Assembly: GCA_050123235.1 (NCBI GenBank)
Contig: JASFHL010000002.1
Coordinates: 79,326-143,325, forward strand
DNA length: 64,000 bases
Reading direction: 5' to 3'
Source: Candidatus Woesebacteria bacterium
GTDB taxonomy: Bacteria; Patescibacteriota; Microgenomatia; UBA1400; PJMF01
The position numbers and the translations under genes were made by a program. Numbering within the stretch: the stretch's first letter is position 1; the number at the start of each line of letters is the position of its first letter. This document shows positions 2,511 to 31,351 of this stretch, in pieces. Below the pieces are notes generated by a model. The model was given only the letters and a program-made list of their open reading frames with translations. It made no database searches and had not been told where the DNA came from.

Positions 2511-3273
2511 ATATTTGGAAACTGCTATCAAAGCTGCCAAGGAAGCGGAGAAAATCATTCTTAAATACTATAAAAAGAAAAATAGGATTTCACTAAAAAA
2601 GGATTTATCTCCTGTCAGCATTGCCGATCAAAAAGCTGAAGAAGCAATTATCAAGACAATTAGAGCAGTCTTTCCTGAGCATAATATCTTGGGAGAAGAG
2701 GGAGGCGATAGAAAAAAACAATCTGAATTTACTTGGATTATTGACCCGATTGATGGAACTAAAAGTTACTTGCGTCACATTCCACTTTTTGCAACAGAAA
2801 TTGCTTTGATGAAGAGTGAAGAAATCATCGTTGGAGTATCTAATGCTCCTGCTTTGAAAGAATTCCTTTATGCAGAAAAAGGGAAAGGAGCTTTTTGTAA
2901 TGATAAAAAAATTTTAGTTTCTAATATTGATAAATTATTTGAAGCGTATTTTAGTTTTGGCGGCTTAAAATATTTTAAAAGGGCTGACTTAATCTCTCAA
3001 CTTGTATCGTTATCTAAGAGCAATCGTGGCTTTAGAGGCATTGGTGAATTTTGGAGTTATCATCTATTAGCACAAGGTAAAATAGATGTGATGATTGAAG
3101 CCTGTGGCACTAAGATATGGGATTTTGCTGCTCTGACTCTTATTGTTAAGGAAGCTGGTGGTAAAGTAACAGATATCAATGGCAATGATATTAATATTAA
3201 AACCGACTCTATTATCGCTACTAATGGTAAATTACATCAAAAAATAGTTGATCGTTTCAAAAAAATAAACTAA
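2497..3273 (+). CDS. Inositol monophosphatase family protein (SuhB/IMPase-like)
   Basis: WIIDPIDGTKSY motif (DPIDGT) together with an EEGG metal-binding motif. Confidence 0.8.
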   Translation: MKKSKYLETAIKAAKEAEKIILKYYKKKNRISLKKDLSPVSIADQKAEEAIIKTIRAVFPEHNILGEEGGDRKKQSEFTWIIDPIDGTKSYLRHIPLFATEIALMKSEEIIVGVSNAPALKEFLYAEKGKGAFCNDKKILVSNIDKLFEAYFSFGGLKYFKRADLISQLVSLSKSNRGFRGIGEFWSYHLLAQGKIDVMIEACGTKIWDFAALTLIVKEAGGKVTDINGNDINIKTDSIIATNGKLHQKIVDRFKKIN

Positions 3274-3280
3274 GAACAAA

Positions 3281-4423
3281 ATGATTCCAAAAATAACAAC
3301 TAAATTAGATAGAATACTTAATATGAAAAAACAAAGCAGTAAAAAAATCAATAAATCTATTCTTGATAGTCGTCAGGCAATCGCTAAGATCGACAAATCA
3401 AATGTCTTAGGTTCAGTTGAAGCTTTAGCTGATCAAATAAAACATATCTGGGAAATCGCTGATCAGAGTTTAAGCTTTAAAAGTAAAAACGAAATAGAAA
3501 ATGTAGTAGTGACTGGCATGGGTGGCTCTGCACTAGGGCCAGATGTAGTTAAGTATCTTTTTAAGGAAAAATTAGATCTTCCCTTTGAAGTAGTCAATAG
3601 TTATACCCTTCCTAATTATGTCAATCAACACAGTTTGGTCATCCTTTCGAGCTATTCAGGCACTACTGAAGAGGTCTTAGCTTGTAGCAAAGAAGTAGAG
3701 AAAAAAAATGCCCAAGTCATGGTCATTACTGCTGGTGGTGAATTAAAAAAAATAGCTGAAAAAAAAAGTTATCCCTTATTATTGATCGATCCTAAATACA
3801 ACCCTTGTGGAGAACCAAGAATGGCTATCGGCTATGCTATTTTTGGAATGATTGCTCTTCTTAGTAAAGCAGGCATTATCCAAATCTCAGAAGATGAGAC
3901 CAAAGAAGTGATTACCACTATTATTAGTGTCATAGAAAAATGCAAAGTAGAAGTTGAAGCTGAAAAAAACCAAGCTAAAACTTTGGCTTTTGCCCTTTAT
4001 GATAAAAGACCTATTTTTGTAGCAAGTGAATTTCTTACAGGAGCTGCGCATGTTGCTGCCAATCAATCCAACGAAAATGCCAAAGCTTTTGCTGACTACA
4101 AAATTATTCCTGAAATTAACCACCATCTCATGGAAGGTCTACACTTCCCTAAAAGTAATACCTACAGCCATTTATTTATTTTTTTCAATTCATCACTTTA
4201 TAATCCTAGAAACCAAAAAAGAATGAAACTAACTCAAAGGGTAGTAGAAAAAAATCAGATAGAAACTTTAAGTATCAAACTTGAAAGTGAGAGCAAAATT
4301 ACCCAAGTTTTTGAATTAATCACTCTCACAGCCTACAGTATCTTTTATTTATCCATGCTCGAAAACGTCAACCCGGATGCTATTCCTTATGTAGATTGGT
4401 TTAAAGCTCAGATGAAAAAATAA
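3281..4423 (+). CDS. Bifunctional phosphoglucose/phosphomannose isomerase (SIS domain)
   Basis: SIS-domain glycine loop VVVTGMGGSALG and a second SIS-like segment, in the length range of archaeal/bacterial PGI/PMI proteins. It sits in a sugar-phosphate gene cluster. Confidence 0.65.
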   Translation: MIPKITTKLDRILNMKKQSSKKINKSILDSRQAIAKIDKSNVLGSVEALADQIKHIWEIADQSLSFKSKNEIENVVVTGMGGSALGPDVVKYLFKEKLDLPFEVVNSYTLPNYVNQHSLVILSSYSGTTEEVLACSKEVEKKNAQVMVITAGGELKKIAEKKSYPLLLIDPKYNPCGEPRMAIGYAIFGMIALLSKAGIIQISEDETKEVITTIISVIEKCKVEVEAEKNQAKTLAFALYDKRPIFVASEFLTGAAHVAANQSNENAKAFADYKIIPEINHHLMEGLHFPKSNTYSHLFIFFNSSLYNPRNQKRMKLTQRVVEKNQIETLSIKLESESKITQVFELITLTAYSIFYLSMLENVNPDAIPYVDWFKAQMKK

Positions 4424-4465
4424 ATTGATTGCATTCAACTTCAAGATACGCTAACATGAATAGTA

Positions 4466-6676
4466 GTGCAAATTCCCACTATTATCAAAGTCCAGGATTT
4501 TCATAGTTATCCCCAGTCTGCCATTGGGCAACTAGCTTTAGTCAAACAAAAACTAAATAAAAACCAAATTCCTTTAGCCCCTACTTTCTGTATTCCCATT
4601 AATACTCTTGAAAAAATAGCAAAGTATAATCAGTTGCCAGCAAAAATTCTTGATTTGCAAACTAGAATCAAAATAGATGATCAAGCTATGCTTGATCGTT
4701 TACTAAAAAAAGTAAAAACTTTAATCACTTATCAAAAATTACCAAAAAGAATTAGTCTACAACTACTGAAATTTCATGACCTAGAAATAAAGAACAACTT
4801 TTTAAACATTTATCCTAGTTATATTAAGCAAGAAATAAATCGTGAAAAATTAGTTCATAAAAACATTATTGGCGAGAGCAATATGCTTGACTCAATTCTC
4901 AATCTTTGGGCTGAATCTCTTACTCAAAAAGATTTGGAAAAAAATAACATTTTTCCTGCAGCTATCATTTTAGAAATTAAATTCCAAGCAAAGGTAGCTG
5001 GCTTAGCTTATACTCTCAATCCACAAAATGCTAATAAAAGGCAGATTTTGATTAAATCAATTTGGGGTAATTTTCATCATTCTATCTTAGAAAATGAAGG
5101 TGACAGTTTTGTCTTGGACCAAAATAATTGGGAAATTATTTACAAAAATATCAAACAACAATTTTTTTATACAGAGCGAATTAGTGATAGACTTGAAGAA
5201 AAAAAATTAAAAAAAGAAAAGCAAAAAATAAGTTCTTTAACAGATGTTGAAGCTATTAATTTAGCTCAAATAGTACAAAAAATTAAACGACTCAATCTCA
5301 AACATCTAGTTATTAGCTGGTATAAAGCCAATCACAAATATTACATCTCAGATGTTCATTCCTATCAGCTGCAAACAAAGATTGAAGACTATTTACAATT
5401 GCCCATTGCTTTGGGCAAAACTATCAACCACGGTTTGATTATCGGCCAAGCTAAGTTTATAGACAAAGCATCAGCACTCAATGATATCAAAACTGACGAT
5501 ATTATTATCTTAGAAAAACTTGATCACAGCTTTCTAAACCAGTTAAGCAAGACAGCTGCCATAATTTGTGAAACAGGCATCAGCACACCTAGTATCTTGC
5601 AAGCTATTAAACAAGCTCAAATACCTTGCCTAACTCAAGTTAAATCAGCTAGAAAAAAAATCAGCAATGGCATGAAAATTCTACTTGATGCTAACCATGG
5701 CAAAGTTTTTCCTCACAAATATCCTTTCAAAGAGGAAAAGCAACAGCAACAACCTTTACTTAATGAATTTTCTAAACAAACAAATCTTAAACTCTATTTA
5801 TCAGCGTCGGTAACTGAATTAGATAAGCTAGATCAGTTGGCTGATGGAATTGGCTTATTAAAAAGTGAAAGCTTGTTTCTTCAAACAGGGGAGCATCCTC
5901 TACATTTAATTAGAAAATGTAGAGAAGATCAAATTAAAAAAACTTTTATTAATCAAATCAAAACTCTGGCTACTAAAATAACTCAAAGGGATTATCCTGT
6001 AATTTATCGTATCCAAACTTTAAACAGCCAAGAATTAAATTCTCTCAAACATGCTGATAATTTTGAAGTAAAAGAAGATAATCCTCACTTAGGTCTGAGA
6101 GGTAGTATCAAAACTGTTCATAATTTTGAAATTTTTGATTTTGAACTTGATCTAATTAGAGAGGCTCAAAAAATCTTACCCCAAATTAAAATTATGCTTG
6201 CTTTTGTTAGAACAGCTGCTGAATTGCAGTTAATTTTAAAGCACGTGCAGCATTCTTCAAAAGATAAGTATAGACAAATCCCAATTTGTCTGGAAATTGA
6301 TACCATTGAAAATATTTTAAATCTCAAATACTATTTACGGCAAAAATTAGCTGCTATTTCTATCAACGTGGAAGAGATAAACGCTTTAATTTATGGCATT
6401 GATCCCTGTAATCATGAAATTAAAAAATTTTATCCAATTGATATCCCCTTACTAGAAACACTCTTGCTTGAAATCGCTCAAGCTAAAAAAGAAGTCTTAG
6501 AAATGACTGATCAGCGAATTCCTGAAATTTATTTACATTTACCAGAAGCAAATGCCGAATTGATCGATATTGCTAGTAAACTAAATTTCACTGCTATCAC
6601 TATCGAGAGCAAGTTTTCAAGTTCAGCAAAAAAGTGTATTATTGAAATAGAGGAATTTACTAAAAAAAATAGTTGA
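4466..6676 (+). CDS. PEP-utilizing enzyme family protein (PEP synthase / pyruvate phosphate dikinase-like, divergent)
   Basis: C-terminal TIM-barrel signature NPHLGLRGS (compare NPxLGxRGxR of PEPS/PPDK/EI). The central segment IILEKLDHSFLNQLSKTAAIICETGISTPSILQAIKQAQIPCL aligns to the mobile phospho-His domain (…TExGGRTSHAAIxARExGIPxVVG). It lies between PGI and enolase. Confidence 0.55.
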   Translation: MQIPTIIKVQDFHSYPQSAIGQLALVKQKLNKNQIPLAPTFCIPINTLEKIAKYNQLPAKILDLQTRIKIDDQAMLDRLLKKVKTLITYQKLPKRISLQLLKFHDLEIKNNFLNIYPSYIKQEINREKLVHKNIIGESNMLDSILNLWAESLTQKDLEKNNIFPAAIILEIKFQAKVAGLAYTLNPQNANKRQILIKSIWGNFHHSILENEGDSFVLDQNNWEIIYKNIKQQFFYTERISDRLEEKKLKKEKQKISSLTDVEAINLAQIVQKIKRLNLKHLVISWYKANHKYYISDVHSYQLQTKIEDYLQLPIALGKTINHGLIIGQAKFIDKASALNDIKTDDIIILEKLDHSFLNQLSKTAAIICETGISTPSILQAIKQAQIPCLTQVKSARKKISNGMKILLDANHGKVFPHKYPFKEEKQQQQPLLNEFSKQTNLKLYLSASVTELDKLDQLADGIGLLKSESLFLQTGEHPLHLIRKCREDQIKKTFINQIKTLATKITQRDYPVIYRIQTLNSQELNSLKHADNFEVKEDNPHLGLRGSIKTVHNFEIFDFELDLIREAQKILPQIKIMLAFVRTAAELQLILKHVQHSSKDKYRQIPICLEIDTIENILNLKYYLRQKLAAISINVEEINALIYGIDPCNHEIKKFYPIDIPLLETLLLEIAQAKKEVLEMTDQRIPEIYLHLPEANAELIDIASKLNFTAITIESKFSSSAKKCIIEIEEFTKKNS

Positions 6677-6742: not shown

Positions 6743-8047
6743 ATGTCTAAAATTCAAACTATTCAAGCCAGAGAGATTATGGATTCGAGAGGTCTCCCTA
6801 CTGTTGAAGTAAGTTTGTGGTTGGAAAATGGGCAATCAGTTACTACTAGTGTGCCAAGTGGTACATCAAAAGGGAAAGATGAAGCCCTAGAATTAAGAGA
6901 TGAAGATCCAGAAAGAATGTTTGGGCAAGGTGTGCTTAAAGCTGTAGAAAATGTAAATAAGGTTCTAGGTCCAAAAATAATTGGTATGGATCCTACTCAA
7001 CAGTTAGAAATTGACCAATTAATGATTAATCTTGACGGTAGTAAAAATAAAAATCAACTAGGAGCAAATGCTATTTTAGCTGTTTCTCAAGCTGTATTAA
7101 AAGCTGGAGCCTTGGCTAGTAATTTACCAGTCTACAGCTATGTACAACAAAAATATCAACTCACAACTGAGCTAGCTATTCCTAATTGTATCTACAGTGT
7201 GGTTAATGGAGGTGAGCATGGAGCTGATAATCTTGATATTCAAGAATTCCAAGTCATAGTTGCCAGTAATTATGATTTCCCAACAGCTTTAGGCATAGTT
7301 GCTACTTTTCAAAAAAAACTAGAAGAAGTGCTAATTATTAAAGGAGCAATTCATTCAGTTGGTCTGTTAGGAGGCTTTACCCCTAATCTTTACAATAACA
7401 CTGACGTATTCGAAATATTAATCGAGACAAGCAAAACTACTGCTTATAAATTCGCCCAAGACATTTTTTTTGGAATTGACGCTTCGGCTTCATCATTCTT
7501 CAGCCACAATAAATATACTTTAAAGGATAAACCTCAACCATATTCTGCTGCTGAATTACTAGAATATTATAAAAATATCAGAAACACTTACAAAGTAATT
7601 TATATTGAAGATCCATTCCAAGAGGATGACAAACAGAGTTGGCAAAATATTACTAATGAAATGGGTGAAACCACCAAAATTGCCGGTGATAGTTTTTTGG
7701 TCACTAATAAAGAAAAAATTGATCAAGCAATCAAAGATAAAAGTTGCAATACCTTAGTAGCCAAACCAAACCAAATTGGTAGCATTAGTGAAACAATAGA
7801 TGTGATCAGTATAGCTAAACAAGCAGGTTGGCAAGTAGCAATATCCCATCGCAGTGGTGAGACTACTGATGATTTAATCGCAGATCTAGCAGTTGGAGTA
7901 GGAGCTGATTTTAGTAAATTTGGACCAATTAACAGAGGAGAAAGAACAGTCAAATATAACCGCTTATTAAAAATTTATCAAGATATTGCTCCTCAAAAAC
8001 AGCCCAATCAAAGTGACTCCCTTCAAAATAATAATGCTCAAACATAA
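6743..8047 (+). CDS. eno: Enolase (phosphopyruvate hydratase)
   Basis: Canonical N-terminus MSKIQTIQAREIMDSRGLPTVEV and active-site region SHRSGETTDDLIADLAV. The track ORF starts at 6692, but the conserved enolase start is M at 6743. Confidence 0.9.
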   Translation: MSKIQTIQAREIMDSRGLPTVEVSLWLENGQSVTTSVPSGTSKGKDEALELRDEDPERMFGQGVLKAVENVNKVLGPKIIGMDPTQQLEIDQLMINLDGSKNKNQLGANAILAVSQAVLKAGALASNLPVYSYVQQKYQLTTELAIPNCIYSVVNGGEHGADNLDIQEFQVIVASNYDFPTALGIVATFQKKLEEVLIIKGAIHSVGLLGGFTPNLYNNTDVFEILIETSKTTAYKFAQDIFFGIDASASSFFSHNKYTLKDKPQPYSAAELLEYYKNIRNTYKVIYIEDPFQEDDKQSWQNITNEMGETTKIAGDSFLVTNKEKIDQAIKDKSCNTLVAKPNQIGSISETIDVISIAKQAGWQVAISHRSGETTDDLIADLAVGVGADFSKFGPINRGERTVKYNRLLKIYQDIAPQKQPNQSDSLQNNNAQT

Positions 8048-25413: not shown

Positions 25414-25438
25414 GTAGATTTTTCGCAAAATAAAAAAT

Positions 25439-25507
25439 GAGCGGGTAACGATAAACTGCTCGAACCTAAGACCTCTTATCGAGCCTAGTTTGGAACTCCA
25501 GTTTCGT
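25439..25507. repeat. Truncated copy (C) of a conserved non-coding repeat family
   Basis: The 28-nt core GAGCGGGTAACGATAAACTGCTCGAACC is identical to the core in copy B (28536-28563). Following similarity is weaker (…CTAGTTTGGAACTCCAGTTTCG). On the minus strand the core is followed by ATTTTTTATTTTG. Confidence 0.6.
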
Positions 25508-25554
25508 AATTTGAAAGATCATCTTGGCATTTTCAGCTTTTCTCAAATATCTAG

Positions 25555-26451
25555 CTAGAAAGAAACATCATTCAAATCAGAACTAATATTTTGAGCAGAT
25601 ACTTTTAAAGCGTTATTTTGAGGAGCTAGTTTAACTACTTCGTCAATAAATTGCGTTTTTTCAGTAGAATTGACGACATAAAGCGGGTTGCCATCAACTG
25701 TGGATGATTGTGATCCGTATTTTTTTACAAGATCTACAAACTGCTGGTCTTTTAAAATATCAAGATTCATAACTCGCACTATTGTTCCAGAGGATGCATC
25801 CCTTTTTTCTCCGATTAAGTCTATCCACACACCCAACGAGCTTATTCCATATGGACCTGGTTCTCTTACATTCAACCAATAGCTTTGACCATTGATCATA
25901 ACCGTTTTATAGTTACTTAAGGATTGGAAATTATCTCCCATCCCCATATATTTTGAGTTTTGGTGGAAGAAATACACATTTCTGATGTCGCCTGAAAATT
26001 CAGGATTTTCAACTCTGATGGACATATTGGCATAATTTTCGTCGGGAACAAAACAGTTTATTGAATTTTGAACACCGTAGGCAGTTTTTATTGATTGATC
26101 TAAAGTGAACGGTAGTTTGTTTAGACTGATCTTACTATTTAGGCAAAATTGAGAAAGGGCTTCAGATAGGTTAATTTTATTTGTTGTTTCTGTAGAGGCA
26201 GATGATGGGATTATAATTTCATCATTTCTCTCACTTATTGGAGTAGGAGTTGTCTGTTCTATTGACTTTAACGGTTGAGATTTATTACCAATGTAATATC
26301 CACTCAAGCCGAAGACTACAGCAGTAACCAAAAAAGTAATCAGTAATGGGAATAATATGTTATTCTTGTTTGTTGAAAAATTTTCAGCTTGGACAACTGG
26401 CCGATTAACTATAGTATTTTCGGGTGGATTTGCTTGACTTTTATCTTCCAT
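25555..26451 (-). CDS. Hypothetical membrane-anchored protein (N-terminal TM, extracytoplasmic domain)
   Basis: A single N-terminal hydrophobic helix, then an S/T/N-rich linker. No motif recognised. Confidence 0.4.
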   Translation of the reverse strand: MEDKSQANPPENTIVNRPVVQAENFSTNKNNILFPLLITFLVTAVVFGLSGYYIGNKSQPLKSIEQTTPTPISERNDEIIIPSSASTETTNKINLSEALSQFCLNSKISLNKLPFTLDQSIKTAYGVQNSINCFVPDENYANMSIRVENPEFSGDIRNVYFFHQNSKYMGMGDNFQSLSNYKTVMINGQSYWLNVREPGPYGISSLGVWIDLIGEKRDASSGTIVRVMNLDILKDQQFVDLVKKYGSQSSTVDGNPLYVVNSTEKTQFIDEVVKLAPQNNALKVSAQNISSDLNDVSF

Positions 26452-26496
26452 ATTTTAATTATGGCTTAACTAAAGATAAATAACAAGAACATTTGC

Positions 26497-26722
26497 GGTT
26501 CGATTCCCATCACCGGTATTGCAACTTTCCAGACTAAACGAATTTTTGTAAAAGATGAGGCTCAAACTCGAGGAAATGCGAACTACTTGGGGAAAATTGA
26601 AGCCACAACAAAACTGCTCCCGTATGGAGCGGGTATGAGCGGGTAACGGTACTTTGCTCGAACCTATTTGGCCTGGACGACTATATCAAACCCGATCTAG
26701 TTTTGCAGTTACAAGCTCTTAA
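26497..26722. repeat. Copy A of the roughly 220-nt conserved non-coding repeat
   Basis: Collinear with copy B over about 220 nt (start GGTTCGATTCCCATCACCGGTATT … end CCCGATCTAGTTTTGCAGTT), with a 10-nt internal tandem duplication (GAGCGGGTAT-GAGCGGGTAA). It lies immediately 3' of the minus-strand gene 26737..27288. Confidence 0.7.
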
Positions 26723-26736
26723 GGGTCACTTAAATA

Positions 26737-27288
26737 TTAAGAGTTTTTCTCAAATAATTTAAACATTTGTGATTCTTTATCGTATGAACGAGCAGTTTCA
26801 AAAGCCTCCTCTAGAGATTTTTTGTTTTGAGCCAACTCATATGCGATATGAGTACCAAATAAATACGCTGAATTCCCGAAAGGCGCTCCAGAGGGTGCAA
26901 TATATTTTTTCACACCTGCATCTAGAAATGAGTTTGCTAGCTCTTTGTTTCCGGTCTCACACCCCAAGCTAACAATATTTTTATCTTTCAGATTTGCATA
27001 TTCCTTCACATCTTCTGCAGATAATGGTTTTTCTCCTGGGCATGTATATATGCCTTCTTTTTCATCACCATGGCATGCAATAAAAATTAAGTCTTCAGTT
27101 TTAATATTACCTTTGAGTATTTCTAGCAACTGTTTTCTGGATCCAATAAAGTGAATGTTTACATTGAACCAAAACCTTTCAAAAGCAAGTCTTAAGGCTT
27201 GAGCTTCAAGATCTGAATTTTCTAAAACAATTAGCGAAACTGGCAATTGTGATACTAACGGTGCTTCATGGTATTTATGTTCAGACAT
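26737..27288 (-). CDS. Small caspase-like protein, clan-CD peptidase-like His/Cys dyad (paralog 1)
   Basis: Beta-strand then HG (DLIFIACHGDEKEG), and about 35 aa later a second strand then Cys (NIVSLGCETGN). This is the pattern of caspase/CHAT p20 domains. It is a paralog of 28663..29298. Confidence 0.4.
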   Translation of the reverse strand: MSEHKYHEAPLVSQLPVSLIVLENSDLEAQALRLAFERFWFNVNIHFIGSRKQLLEILKGNIKTEDLIFIACHGDEKEGIYTCPGEKPLSAEDVKEYANLKDKNIVSLGCETGNKELANSFLDAGVKKYIAPSGAPFGNSAYLFGTHIAYELAQNKKSLEEAFETARSYDKESQMFKLFEKNS

Positions 27289-27477
27289 ATCAAGTTAATT
27301 ATAGAAGAATTGGCTACGCTTTGGTATAGTCAGCTTACCGAATGATCTCTATGGTGAAGGTGCCTTACTTTTAGGGAACGATTGTTGGTGCTGGTGCACC
27401 AGTGATCCATCTTAGCTACAGGGATCGCTAGTCACTAATCAAGATGGAGAAATTTATTTTGCTCAAAATAACATTTT

Positions 27478-28359
27478 ATGTCACAAGGAAAGATTTTTGA
27501 ACAAATTGTCAGTTTGATCGAACACAGTTTAAAAAGTGACGAGAATGTCACAGTAAAGCACGATGTCAAACTAGTTGATTCATTAGGAATAGAAAGACAA
27601 ATTGATGTTTATATAACAGCTTTTATAAATGAGCATGAAATCACTGTCGCCATTGAGTGTAAGGATCACAACAGTAAAGTAAAAATTACTGAAATAGATG
27701 CATTTGATAGTAAAACTCGGAAACTTGCGGTGGATAAGCGAATATTTGTTTCTAAAAATGGTTATCAGTCAGGAGCAATCAAAACTGCAAAAAAAACAGG
27801 AATAGAATTGTGCACCCTTTCAAATCTTTCAAAAGAAGTACTAAAATCTTGGTTGCAAATACCAGGACTTCAAATGATAAATCAAATATATGATTTTAAA
27901 CACTCAAGATTTAATTTAGCTAAAGAAACGACAGTCAAAAAATTACCACCAAATTATGATATTGAGTCAAATCTATACTTGGCTGACAAGAAAAAACAAA
28001 TATCTACATCAGAGGTTAGACAGAACCTTATTAATCAGCTCTCAAAGCAACATCCTGACTTTTTTGAACCCAATAAGACCAAAAAAGTAGTTTTCAATTT
28101 CCCCAAGGAACCATATTACTTAAAAATTAATAATTTATTTGAACGAATAGATAATATTGAATCAATTATTTTTTTTAGATCGGAAATAACAAATCACCCG
28201 ATTTCTTATATACAACAATATTCACAGATTAATGGAAAAAATATTGCGAAGGCAGCGTCAATCGAGTTTCCTGCGTTATCTCAAGAATTTATCTTGAGCT
28301 TTGTTAGGTCAGAAAGTGACAACCTTACAAGGGTAGTTATTGCACCCAAAAAGAAATAG
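27478..28359 (+). CDS. Protein with an N-terminal Mrr-type restriction endonuclease (PD-(D/E)xK) domain and a C-terminal region of unknown function
   Basis: LVDSLGIERQIDVYI…ITVAIECKDHNSKVKITEIDAF…IFVSKNGYQSGAIKTAKKTGIELCTL fits the Mrr_cat pattern (D…ExK, followed by the conserved A…A…gI.L segment). The C-terminal roughly 170 aa have no recognisable motif. Confidence 0.55.
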   Translation: MSQGKIFEQIVSLIEHSLKSDENVTVKHDVKLVDSLGIERQIDVYITAFINEHEITVAIECKDHNSKVKITEIDAFDSKTRKLAVDKRIFVSKNGYQSGAIKTAKKTGIELCTLSNLSKEVLKSWLQIPGLQMINQIYDFKHSRFNLAKETTVKKLPPNYDIESNLYLADKKKQISTSEVRQNLINQLSKQHPDFFEPNKTKKVVFNFPKEPYYLKINNLFERIDNIESIIFFRSEITNHPISYIQQYSQINGKNIAKAASIEFPALSQEFILSFVRSESDNLTRVVIAPKKK

Positions 28360-28404
28360 ATTTATGGGATACTTTGTTTTATTATTGAACTGGCTCCGAC
28401 GGAG

Positions 28405-28622
28405 GAGTTCGATTCTCGTCACCGGTATTATACCTTTCCAGGCTAACGTAATTTTTGTGAATTTTGAGGCTCGAACTCGGGGAAAGATGGATTACTTTGG
28501 GAAATTTTAGGCCACGACAAAACTACTCCCGTATGGAGCGGGTAACGATAAACTGCTCGAACCCATTTGGCCTGGATGACTATATCAAACCCGATCTGGT
28601 CTTGCAGTTGAATCTTCTTAAA
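28405..28622. repeat. Copy B of the roughly 220-nt conserved non-coding repeat
   Basis: Collinear with copy A. It contains the core GAGCGGGTAACGATAAACTGCTCGAACC (28536-28563) and internal complementary segments (GAGTTCGA / TCGAACTC). It lies immediately 3' of the minus-strand gene 28663..29298. Confidence 0.7.
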
Positions 28623-28662
28623 GAGCGAATGGGTATTAGATCCCTTGTTAATACTTAACCTT

Positions 28663-29298
28663 CTAATTATTAAGTCTTTTGTCTGTTGGTTCTATAAGTA
28701 CTCTTTCGGCTTGATTTAGGACACCAGAAATTCCCTGTACATAATATATTGGACAACCAATCTCGTCGACTATCCACTGTGGAATATTATAAGTACCCAC
28801 CCCTTCTGAGTTAGCACTACAAGCATCAAACGCTATTAATGTATATTTATTTTTGCCTGTTAAATCCTTGATTGGACCTCTCAAAAAATCTTCAACATCA
28901 ACAATTTTTTCACCAAATCCTTTAGTAGAAATAATCCATCGACCCTGTTTTTCTGCACCATGTCCATGAATAAGAAGTATGTTTGGAGATTCTGCAGATA
29001 ATATATCAATCAACCTGTTTTGTACAGAATCATAACTATCTCTTTTAATGCCAAAAATTCTTGTCAAAGAAATTAGAGGTTTAAATCTCGCATCTTTGAA
29101 CTCATGTTTTTCACCAAAAACTGTAACTTCTTCTACTGTATGTTGCCAATCAAGTATGACGCTATCGACACGAGCATCTCTTTCAAACTCAGGAGTAAAT
29201 TGAAAACCTGACTCTGTTAACACGAAAGGCCCTTTGTTAAATACTATTCGTGCCTTATCACCCTGCTGAAGAACATAATCAGTATAATTTTCAGGCAT
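28663..29298 (-). CDS. Small caspase-like protein, clan-CD peptidase-like His/Cys dyad (paralog 2)
   Basis: NILLIHGHGAEKQG (HG motif) and KYTLIAFDACSANSEG (Cys motif), with the same spacing and pattern as 26737..27288, plus an extra N-terminal extension of about 80 aa. Confidence 0.4.
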   Translation of the reverse strand: MPENYTDYVLQQGDKARIVFNKGPFVLTESGFQFTPEFERDARVDSVILDWQHTVEEVTVFGEKHEFKDARFKPLISLTRIFGIKRDSYDSVQNRLIDILSAESPNILLIHGHGAEKQGRWIISTKGFGEKIVDVEDFLRGPIKDLTGKNKYTLIAFDACSANSEGVGTYNIPQWIVDEIGCPIYYVQGISGVLNQAERVLIEPTDKRLNN

Positions 29299-29349
29299 AT
29301 TTCATGATATTACTTAATGTAATTTTCTGTTTATTTCTGCCACTTTTTG

Positions 29350-29422
29350 AGCGAGAGACGGGATTCGAACCCGCGACCTTCTCCTTGGCAAGGAGACATT
29401 CTAGCCACTGAACTACTCTCGC
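29350..29422 (-). tRNA. tRNA-Gly (anticodon GCC)
   Basis: Reverse complement folds: acceptor GCGAGAG, anticodon stem CTCCT/AGGAG with loop TT-GCC-AA, T-arm GCGGGTTCGAATCCCGT. Confidence 0.8.
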
Positions 29423-29499
29423 TTTTCTTAATCAAAACTTAGCTAAAATTTCTAGCACCAGTCTTTCAATTTTTAATCTCCAACTTTTAACTCATTCTG

Positions 29500-29572
29500 T
29501 GCCAAGCTGAGGAATCGAACCTCAATCTCATGTTTTTCAGACACGCGCCGTGACCAACTTGGCTAGCTTGGC
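29500..29572 (-). tRNA. tRNA-Phe (anticodon GAA)
   Basis: Reverse complement: acceptor GCCAAGC, anticodon loop CT-GAA-AA, T-arm TGAGGTTCGATTCCTCA. Confidence 0.8.
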
Positions 29573-29639
29573 TAATTTTATCTTATCTTAAAAACAACCT
29601 CCCTATCCTAGCCTTATTCTAAAAATTTTTCAAGCCTAG

Positions 29640-29713
29640 TGGGCAATGTAGGATTCGAACCTACGACCTCTTCGATGTAAGCGAAGCACTCTAACCAGCT
29701 GAGCTAATTGCCC
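29640..29713 (-). tRNA. tRNA-Val (anticodon TAC)
   Basis: Reverse complement: GGGCAATTAGCTCAGCTGGTTAGAGTG…, anticodon loop CT-TAC-AT, T-arm GTAGGTTCGAATCCTAC. Confidence 0.8.
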
Positions 29714-30022: not shown

Positions 30023-31351
30023 ATGATCACAGTCACTCCAGAAAAACCGCTATCAGCTAGCAACGTGGAGGGTGATCCTGCTACCGAAAGACAACTTTCA
30101 GCTCCTCCCCAACTTCGACCTAGAGAAATTGCTTATCAGGAACCCGGTGAGCCTTTGTCAGGAGAAAGATTGGAAGAATTAAGAGAAATTTTAGCTCTAG
30201 ATCATCAGCCTACTTTAGAAGCCTTAGCTTCTCATCTTTTTCAGAGTGACTTGGATCGAGCTCAAGAGTATTTGGCAGAATTAGCAATTGTAATGAATTT
30301 CCCAACAACGAAACTTTTTGTTCGTGATGCTAATACTGTTTTCCAAGATAAAGAAACTCTTGATTTAAAATTGAGCTTACTTGGCATAAATCCTCACACT
30401 TTTGGGGATCTTATGAGGATCAGAAATAACGATCCACAAGCAAATATAAGTAGAGCCACTTTGCTGAAAGAAGTTAATGACAGCAGCTTTACCGTAGCAA
30501 AAAGACTAGCTGAAGTTTGGACTGAAGTAAACTCAAGAGGCTACAAAGGTTACGTTGATTTATTAAATCAAATGGGTTGCACTCAAGAAAGAATAGCTGA
30601 TGCTGAAATTTTATTGGCTAATCTAGTAAACAGATTTTTACCAGGATTAACTGATGTACTTGATATCCATGATCCTCAATATAATCATAATCCAAATTTA
30701 GCATTGCCAGAATTACGACTGGCTGCAGCAAGTTCTAAAGAACTAGAAGAACTTTTTGGTCTAGATACTATCCCTTCTGCAGAATCAGATCTATTAGCTC
30801 CAGGTACGGCTACAGCTATGTTTTTTGCTAGAATTAATGAGCAAGAAAAATTAGAAAAAAAAGTGACCATTCTTCATGGCAAAGGTGATCCAAGAACAAA
30901 ACATGAAGTAGGACACGTATTAACTGATTATGCTTTAACTGATGCTGGTTTGCCTTTCTCATTAATGACTGATATGGAATTAACTGAAGCTGCCAGTAGA
31001 TTCAGCGAAAGAATGGATATCAGAGAAACTATTTTTAATCTTGCTACTTTAGTGGCAAGTTATAGATTAGCTAAAGACATAGATACATTGATGAGAATAC
31101 CACAACTAGATTTAGATAAAAAGATTTTTGTTTTGCAAGACGATATAACAGAAGCAGCGGACCAAGAATTAGATTGTGGCATTAAAGCGGCACCAGGAGC
31201 TGCTCATCTTTGGATGGGCCCTTTTGCAGTACCATATTGGATGGGTACTGCCAGCGCTGTTTCTATGAGGCTAGCTTTAAGTGAAGAAGAAAATCCTAAA
31301 ACTCAGATAGAAGCGATTGCCATGGTTTTGCAACAATATGGAGTTCTCTAG
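30023..31351 (+). CDS. Hypothetical protein with G+C and codon usage atypical for the window (possibly acquired)
   Basis: A 442-aa ORF rich in L/E/A/D. G+C is visibly higher than in flanking genes (frequent CTG, GCC, CGA, GAG codons). No motif recognised. Confidence 0.5.
   Translation: MITVTPEKPLSASNVEGDPATERQLSAPPQLRPREIAYQEPGEPLSGERLEELREILALDHQPTLEALASHLFQSDLDRAQEYLAELAIVMNFPTTKLFVRDANTVFQDKETLDLKLSLLGINPHTFGDLMRIRNNDPQANISRATLLKEVNDSSFTVAKRLAEVWTEVNSRGYKGYVDLLNQMGCTQERIADAEILLANLVNRFLPGLTDVLDIHDPQYNHNPNLALPELRLAAASSKELEELFGLDTIPSAESDLLAPGTATAMFFARINEQEKLEKKVTILHGKGDPRTKHEVGHVLTDYALTDAGLPFSLMTDMELTEAASRFSERMDIRETIFNLATLVASYRLAKDIDTLMRIPQLDLDKKIFVLQDDITEAADQELDCGIKAAPGAAHLWMGPFAVPYWMGTASAVSMRLALSEEENPKTQIEAIAMVLQQYGVL

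Follow-up and report, generated by a model that had tools for sequence, protein, structure and literature searches.

Are two small proteins encoded beside a tRNA-Gly gene of a Candidatus Woesebacteria bacterium clan-CD cysteine peptidases, are they related to each other, and why is each of their genes followed by a copy of the same repeat? The genes lie on the minus strand of a 64,000-nucleotide stretch of contig JASFHL010000002.1 (a Microgenomates metagenome-assembled genome, GenBank assembly GCA_050123235.1, positions 79,326 to 143,325 of the forward strand), which we call the window and from whose first letter its coordinates are counted. Protein A (26737..27288, 183 aa) is 100% identical to PVJ09_01515, and protein B (28663..29298, 211 aa) matches PVJ09_01525. 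An earlier note on this DNA had read the pair as paralogous caspase-like proteases of unusually small size, each coupled to the repeat and possibly serving in defence; both open reading frames (ORFs) are where that note had placed them, with the strand and lengths given here. Our answer, which we hold with slightly more belief than doubt, is that A is a minimal clan-CD peptidase, that B carries a possible clan-CD domain, and that both are cargo of an island of cassettes anchored at the tRNA-Gly gene.

The first motif is LIFIAC-H73-G74-DEKEG in A and ILLIHG-H113-G114-AEKQG in B, so that the HG motif (HGDEKEG and HGAEKQG) is common to the two proteins as previously described. The second motif is IVSLG-C110-ETGN in A and LIAFDA-C160-SANS in B; the pattern C-x-(T/S)-(G/A)-N proposed for both fits A (C-ETGN) but not B, which has one residue fewer (C-S-A-N). 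At the family level the Cys motif reads GCxTG among the relatives of A and DACS among those of B, and His and Cys are 37 residues apart in A, 47 in B. Among 120 relatives of A, His73 is conserved in 100% and Gly74, Gly109 and Cys110 in 99% each, and in an alignment of 57 sequences R33, E37, G49, H73, C110, G113, P136 and Y150 are invariant.

The AlphaFold2 model of A, built from a nine-sequence alignment, has a predicted local distance difference test score (pLDDT) of 90 and a predicted TM-score of 0.86. Strands and helices alternate in it, and the predicted fold is an alpha/beta/alpha sandwich with the clan-CD strand order. His73, the predicted catalytic His (codon 27070..27072, minus strand), stands at the end of strand 67-71 and is followed by Gly74, and Cys110, the predicted nucleophile (codon 26959..26961, minus strand), stands in the G-C-x-T-G motif at the end of strand 104-107. 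The conserved dyad, a His in H-G and then a Cys, is thus placed at the ends of successive core strands in the order known for clan CD. The top structural matches of A (8tl0, 7y83, 7zoq and 8rot) are CHAT or caspase-like effectors of type III CRISPR and of the cyclic-oligonucleotide-based antiphage signaling system (CBASS). In an hhalign comparison with human caspase-3, the HG of A aligned with His121-Gly and the GC with Ala-Cys163 (E=0.0022, probability 13%).

Sequence profiles were less generous than the model. The earlier note had suggested searches against CHAT and Peptidase_C14; the Pfam CHAT match of A (PF12770, residues 24-166) fell below threshold (E=0.09, 12.6 bits vs a gathering threshold of 24), B had none, and Peptidase_C14 matched neither protein at E up to 1. 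Three of 57 relatives of A matched CHAT at E<0.01 (best 8.3e-4) and none matched any other family, and a few members of the A family carry the automatic UniRef name 'CHAT domain-containing protein'. A PDB sequence search with A profiles of 9 and 57 sequences found no related solved structure. We conclude that A has a clan-CD fold nearest to CHAT, with a dyad under strict selection, and belongs to an unannotated and unstudied minimal family that lies outside Pfam CHAT by the threshold of that model. The most likely identity of A is a single-domain, cytoplasmic cysteine peptidase of clan CD, from the CHAT/separase/gingipain branch. In such an enzyme the general base would be His73, which closes strand 3, and the nucleophile that cleaves the peptide bond would be Cys110, which closes strand 4; A would work as an autonomous Cys-His endopeptidase, free of the sensor or regulatory parts (TPR, SAVED, NACHT and similar) by which known CHAT proteases are controlled. 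D75, an acidic residue beside the dyad, is 92% conserved, and the acidic residues there hint that A, like metacaspases, gingipain R and separase, may prefer a basic residue at P1.

How widespread is this family? The first search for A returned 8 relatives besides the identical entry, mostly from uncultured organisms, among them several members of the candidate phyla radiation (CPR) and one Streptomyces. A profile search extended the family to at least 231 clusters, of which those listed are roughly 160-250 aa long and nearly all single-domain; most come from Streptomyces, Nocardia and other actinobacteria, the family has no Pfam assignment, and tblastn added members in Bacillus and Priestia. 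A length of about 190 aa is indeed small for the fold, as the earlier note had remarked, but the window is not alone in this: the A family, with its 231 or more clusters, is of similar size throughout. We found nothing in the literature on this protein family or on tRNA-Gly cassettes in CPR bacteria.

The genomic settings of the A family are diverse. In CPR genomes the relatives lie beside trpS/tyrS and tRNA-Gly, beside rpoC, or beside tspO. The Streptomyces relative, which the index lists in 171 blocks of the collection, is flanked by ppc and by pth-rplY-prs-glmU; two Nocardia-type genomes have theirs between gcvT and a class IV aminotransferase gene, and the Priestia relative is on a plasmid among metabolic genes. 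No partner gene was conserved across 9 contexts of A homologs and 2 distinct contexts of B. Since the CPR neighbours differ and the Streptomyces and Nocardia loci are core-genome, no neighbour is conserved across the A family.

The core-genome metabolic neighbourhoods in Streptomyces and Nocardia raise a different view of A, in which the fold and the live dyad would serve a transpeptidase or ligase, a thiol hydrolase or an acyl-transfer enzyme with a small molecule or a modified protein as its substrate, as a part of core metabolism. Clan CD does include transamidases such as the glycosylphosphatidylinositol (GPI) transamidase, and legumain-type ligases, and both are in the structural match list of A. 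In addition, P0052 (360 aa) joins an N-terminal GNAT acetyltransferase to a relative of A, and GNAT genes are adjacent to or near the A homologs of Priestia (L029) and Baekduia (L025). However, the GNAT fusion is the sole one of its kind and comes from an ENA contig of 1.3 kb, no neighbour recurs across lineages, and the nearest structural relatives of A are all endopeptidases. We regard such an activity as unlikely and a peptidase as the better description of A.

Protein B is a harder case. Its public annotation (PVJ09_01525) gives 186 aa from a start 25 codons too late; the 211-aa model is better because homologs align from Met1. A word-indexed search found 5 relatives, and an exhaustive hidden Markov model (HMM) search of 1.84 billion representatives added 3 real ones; two other HMM matches, a gp32 repeat concatemer and an M23/lectin repeat protein, were discarded as repeat artefacts. 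His113, in H-G-H113-G114 (codon 28960..28962, minus strand), and Cys160, in D-A-C-S at the end of strand 154-160 (codon 28819..28821, minus strand), are invariant in a five-sequence alignment; His111 is not, being Y in P0012. The model divides B into a poorly defined beta-rich N-terminal part (about residues 1-70) and an alpha/beta C-terminal part (about 90-205), with the HG inside a long strand and Cys160 closing its own.

Structure comparison pointed B in the same direction as A, with less force. The best Foldseek matches of B were MALT1 and caspase-9, at E 0.013 or worse and a TM-score of about 0.2, and in two comparison programs, run against 48,000 and 350,000 chains, clan-CD enzymes ranked top and made up nearly all of the weak matches. 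An hhalign comparison with caspase-3 put the HG and the C both in register (probability 0.7%). The His-then-Cys order, the positions at strand ends, and H-G-H-G and D-A-C-S, which resemble metacaspase motifs, agree with this placement. These lines are mutually consistent and none is significant; clan CD is no more than a reasonable guess for B, which could be an independently derived, very divergent clan-CD domain behind a beta-rich N-terminal domain.

There is a considerable chance, if somewhat below even, that B is not a clan-CD protein and is instead an orphan alpha/beta protein whose HG and Cys follow hydrophobic strands by chance and whose likeness to A is coincidental. Searches of Pfam, NCBIfam, PADLOC and PDB sequences gave no match for B, Peptidase_C14 gave none for its family up to E 10, and the exhaustive profile search returned close relatives only, apart from the two spurious repeat proteins. 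The C-terminal domain, of only about 115 aa, is short for the clan-CD fold. The comparison between the two families is of the same kind: hhalign of the A family against the B family gave probabilities of 1.3% and 1.9%. BLASTP of A against B aligned only a 47-residue segment that surrounds the HG motif. Its E=0.002 holds for a single comparison and is not significant, because the pair was chosen among all window proteins. The paralogy claimed for A and B is therefore not supported: if both belong to clan CD, they are very distant relatives at best and not recent paralogs. The clan-CD identity itself is supported for A by a confident model and a conserved dyad, whereas for B it is weakly supported and no profile places the protein in any family.

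Is the locus a defence system, as had been suggested? In type III CRISPR and CBASS, exactly the systems of the top structural matches of A, CHAT and caspase-like proteases serve as effectors, and both genes sit in a variable accessory island beside tRNA genes together with a restriction-endonuclease-fold protein. A and/or B could then be abortive-infection or toxin-type proteases of an anti-phage module, perhaps with this Mrr-type nuclease, cleaving host or phage proteins upon infection. But the five island proteins had no meaningful PADLOC match, the only one being the 2TM 'Effector' model for a 298-aa protein at E=0.26. Neither A nor B has a fused sensor domain, and no cyclase, Cas, gasdermin or NLR (nucleotide-binding leucine-rich-repeat) gene lies nearby. 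The relatives of A have no conserved partner and the actinobacterial ones are in conserved housekeeping neighbourhoods, the Mrr-type gene does not occur with A or B elsewhere, and no relatives were found in viral contigs (searched for A and B) or phage genomes (searched for A only). We consider the defence role improbable, and neither A nor B is part of a recognisable multi-gene defence system.

Copy 2 of the repeat (28406..28658, plus strand) lies directly 3' of B and copy 1 (26497..26765, plus strand) directly 3' of A, so that each gene is coupled to a copy as the earlier note had seen. The element is not tied specifically to caspase-like genes: a third and short one, copy 0 (25439..25557, plus strand), lies 3' of an unrelated 298-aa gene and abuts an AI-2E transporter gene at the far end of the island, and elsewhere in Microgenomates the element follows many unrelated genes. 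Each long copy contains a 28-nt core, at 28536-28563 in copy 2 and at 26637-26664 in copy 1, and the core has 3 matches in the window vs 0 expected by chance. In copy 2 the reverse complement of the core ends in ...GGTTCGAGCAGTTTATCGTTACCCGCTC-CA, much like a tRNA-Gly 3' end. Read on the tRNA-sense strand, the element finishes with ...GGTTCGAGC..CGTTACCCGCTC(CA), which by eye is like the T-loop and acceptor of the local tRNA-Gly, ...GGTTCGA..CGTATCCCGCTCCA. The island thus holds three direct repeats, in tRNA orientation, of a sequence that looks by eye like the tRNA 3' end.

On the tRNA-sense strand a cassette ends in a conserved stretch of about 95 nt, then the 28-nt sequence that resembles the tRNA-Gly 3' end, and then a terminator hairpin. 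The B unit closes with a terminator-like hairpin and T-run at 28525..28539 (minus strand) and the A unit with one at 26616..26630 (minus strand); in both, the 5' half of the hairpin is the GCTCCA end of the pseudo-tRNA sequence. In locus L001 the equivalent of the A-unit terminator is a perfect 15-bp palindrome followed by a T-run.

The same arrangement recurs in other genomes. We found the 28-mer in 15 species-representative genomes, mostly labelled CPR or Microgenomates and often with 2-3 copies per locus; a few metagenome-assembled genomes with it are nominally Pseudomonadales or Gammaproteobacteria. Besides the window, the element is present in loci L001, L004 and L008-L022, and it had no match in viral contigs. 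Nearly everywhere the gene directly 3' of which it lies is in convergent orientation. These genes are mutually unrelated; examples, labelled from their translations, encode a predicted ATP-binding protein, predicted kinase-like proteins, an epimerase-like protein and membrane proteins. In six loci (the window, L001, L010, L012, L014 and L020) the array begins immediately downstream of a tRNA-Gly gene in the same orientation, the anticodons of these anchoring genes being GCC, TCC or CCC, and in the window and L011 it stops at the 3' end of an AI-2E transporter gene. In a Roizmanbacteria genome, about 60 nt downstream of a tRNA-Gly(CCC), lies a unit that matches A plus its element at 83% identity over 642 nt; the similarity breaks off where the 28-mer ends and close to the start codon. 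This architecture is the pattern that serial site-specific insertion at the 3' end of tRNA-Gly would be expected to leave.

We tentatively propose, as a possibility well short of probable, that A and B are cargo of a hitherto undescribed integron-like system of Microgenomates, in which cassettes of one or two genes insert serially at tRNA-Gly 3' ends. The pseudo-tRNA-Gly 3' end of each cassette would double as the 5' half of the terminator hairpin, and the recombinase would act in trans. A small protein read on the opposite strand would start at the recombination junction and be whole only in a circular or array-internal form. Minimal clan-CD proteases would then be among the mobile functions exchanged between ultra-small bacteria.

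A plus-strand reading frame runs opposite the cassette genes at 28464-28658 (intact, 64 aa), 26637-26765 and 25439-25557; in copy 1 a 10-nt duplication breaks the ORF. In most copies of the element the frame reads ERVTIxCSNLFSLDDYIKPDLVLQLNLLKEHLNIxSF-stop, and six loci have a version lengthened by 24 inserted codons. Indels in the frame (3, 6, 10 and 24 codons) are without exception multiples of three, and differences at codon positions 1, 2 and 3 number 2803, 2083 and 3466. The frame has no consistent start codon, and homology sets in abruptly from the junction GAGCGGG onward; the frame may belong to a small gene lying across the recombination site. As the gene of a known small protein the repeat was rejected, the translation having no Pfam match.

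Six extended copies, including both long copies of the window, start about 130 nt further upstream with an inverted box, GGTTCGAWWCYCGTYACCGGTA, that resembles the tRNA 3' end and can pair with the 28-mer about 130 nt away. The boxes lie at 28406-28427 and 26497-26518 (plus strand) in the window and at L013 4892, L016 6066, L018 486 and L021 6718. Stems of a hairpin between the box and the 28-mer co-vary (TCTGG/CCAGA vs TTGAG/CTCGG). RNAalifold on five extended copies gave long-range pairing of the two tRNA-3'-like ends with some compensatory changes, both strands folding similarly, a result that is not decisive because only 5 sequences were used. A remnant of a tRNA ending like the left inverted repeat was considered and dropped, since neither the window nor the loci contain such a tRNA.

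Several other identities of the repeat were also rejected. For a tmRNA or permuted tmRNA, to which a T-arm-like start and an ORF might point, ARAGORN and Rfam found nothing, there is no matching 5' acceptor strand, and the element is multi-copy. As a canonical integron attC, its boxes (GGTTCGA... and CGTTACCCG) misfit the R'' RYYYAAC and R' GTTRRRY consensus. For the template or variable repeat of a diversity-generating retroelement, a reverse transcriptase stands beside copies in L018 only (RVT_1, E=2e-20, gene at 3916-5112, about 900 nt from element copies at 2873-3028). Locus L021 contains two copies of tRNA-Thr(CGT), at 3635-3767 and 6848-6956, each 6 nt from the start of a 28-mer; the second is inserted exactly at the element junction, with GAGC/GCTC on either side, a hint that tRNA genes, too, can be cassettes.

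The island as a whole spans 3.9 kb (about 25414-29348) between the AI-2E transporter gene and tRNA-Gly(GCC) (29349..29422, minus strand), the anchor of the array. Along the tRNA strand its order is B, copy 2, the inverted Mrr-type gene, A, copy 1, the 298-aa gene and copy 0. The flanks are housekeeping: miaB, miaA and the AI-2E transporter gene on one side, and on the other tRNA-Gly(GCC), which is preceded by tRNA-Phe (29499-29572) and tRNA-Val (29639-29713), then an orphan 442-aa protein and argG. The Mrr-type gene (27478..28359, plus strand, 293 aa) sits between the A and B cassettes, opposite in orientation to both. It encodes an N-terminal restriction-endonuclease fold (Mrr_cat E=2.4e-7, 31.3 bits, cutoff 21) and an uncharacterised C-terminal half, and it accompanied neither A nor B homologs in the other genomes examined. 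Apart from this Mrr_cat match, scans of the five island proteins against Pfam, NCBIfam and PADLOC stayed below threshold. The third cassette gene (25555..26451, minus strand, 298 aa) encodes a protein with an N-terminal membrane anchor and of no known family, whose N-terminus is related to the gene directly after tRNA-Gly(gcc) in L020 (E=3e-11).

Two further features of the region were noted. The 189-nt spacer between the divergent A and Mrr-type genes (27300-27450) is by eye more G+C-rich than its surroundings; compared with shuffled sequences, its plus strand folds at -46.4 kcal/mol (z = -2.2) and its minus strand has z = -0.4. It could be a structured leader of the Mrr-type gene, and it has no Rfam match. 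Beyond the tRNA cluster, the 442-aa ORF (30023-31351, plus strand) has no meaningful Pfam, NCBIfam or PADLOC match, and its N-terminus is, by eye, unusually rich in Glu, Pro, Ala and Leu for a low-GC genome.

Several observations weigh against the view that A is a minimal clan-CD peptidase, B a possible relative in fold, and both cargo of a tRNA-Gly cassette island. No sequence-profile method placed A above threshold in CHAT or Peptidase_C14, so that its fold assignment draws on a predicted structure, and the juxtaposition of His73 and Cys110 is likewise a prediction from the topology of the model. Although H113, G114 and C160 of B are invariant, the alignment has only 5 sequences, which are 52-60% identical. 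The AlphaFold check suggested earlier, which favoured A, gave for B a model of mediocre confidence (pLDDT 69.7, with the loop 162-168 after Cys160 below 50) and no significant structural match. Finally, the proteins encoded at 25-31.4 kb of the window and the related loci that were examined yielded no recombinase or integrase domain, of the intI type or otherwise, so that integration is deduced from the architecture only.

What would A and the island mean for these bacteria? Known bacterial CHAT and caspase-like proteases are restrained by fused or partner sensors. A family of 180-200 aa that consists of the catalytic core only raises the question of what restrains the protease and what is cut. 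The dyad of A is strictly conserved, and the gene, which Streptomyces and Nocardia retain in their core chromosome, is found in genome-reduced CPR bacteria as well. The question is open to genetic test, since Streptomyces has orthologs. The cassette element is the more unusual observation of the two. Gene exchange in CPR bacteria is poorly understood, and an array of tiny cassettes anchored at tRNA-Gly and sharing one end element would, if confirmed, be a concrete and traceable mechanism of exchange.

How do the proteins and the array compare with known systems? Like the CHAT proteases (PF12770: SAVED-CHAT, TPR-CHAT/Csx29 of Craspase, and DdvA), A places its dyad in a His-Gly and a Gly-Cys, and CHAT is the only Pfam family that its relatives touch. 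Unlike them, A has 183 aa without a SAVED, TPR or transmembrane sensor part, it is not beside CRISPR, CBASS or sigma/anti-sigma genes, and its relatives are single genes. With caspases, metacaspases and orthocaspases A shares the order of catalytic residues and the hhalign register with the caspase-3 dyad; unlike these, A and B have no Peptidase_C14 match, inter-subunit linker or p10-like extension, and the catalytic domain of a caspase is some 70 aa longer than A. The C80 domain of MARTX, TcdA and TcdB and the DUF4347 domain of Tce1, a type VI secretion system effector (9qpe_G, 178 aa), are similar in size, at about 180-250 aa. These domains are parts of large secreted toxins, C80 being activated by eukaryotic inositol hexakisphosphate (InsP6), while A and B stand alone, have no secretion signal evident by eye and share no sequence similarity with them.

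For the array, the closest comparisons are integron arrays and tandem genomic islands at tRNA or tmRNA genes, of which the ssrA-specific islands of Dehalococcoides are an example (PMC3146451). The arrays examined differ from both in that neither they nor their immediate surroundings yielded a gene for an integrase or recombinase. They differ from islands of 10-50 kb in that the cassettes hold one or two genes, and from integrons in that the element misfits the attC R''/R' consensus and carries a conserved opposite-strand reading frame. On the other hand, as in tRNA/tmRNA islands and integron arrays, the cargo is unrelated and mostly co-oriented, and each unit is closed by an element that repeats the 3' end of the anchor RNA. 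The same unit of cargo plus element is, moreover, found at the equivalent site in another lineage.

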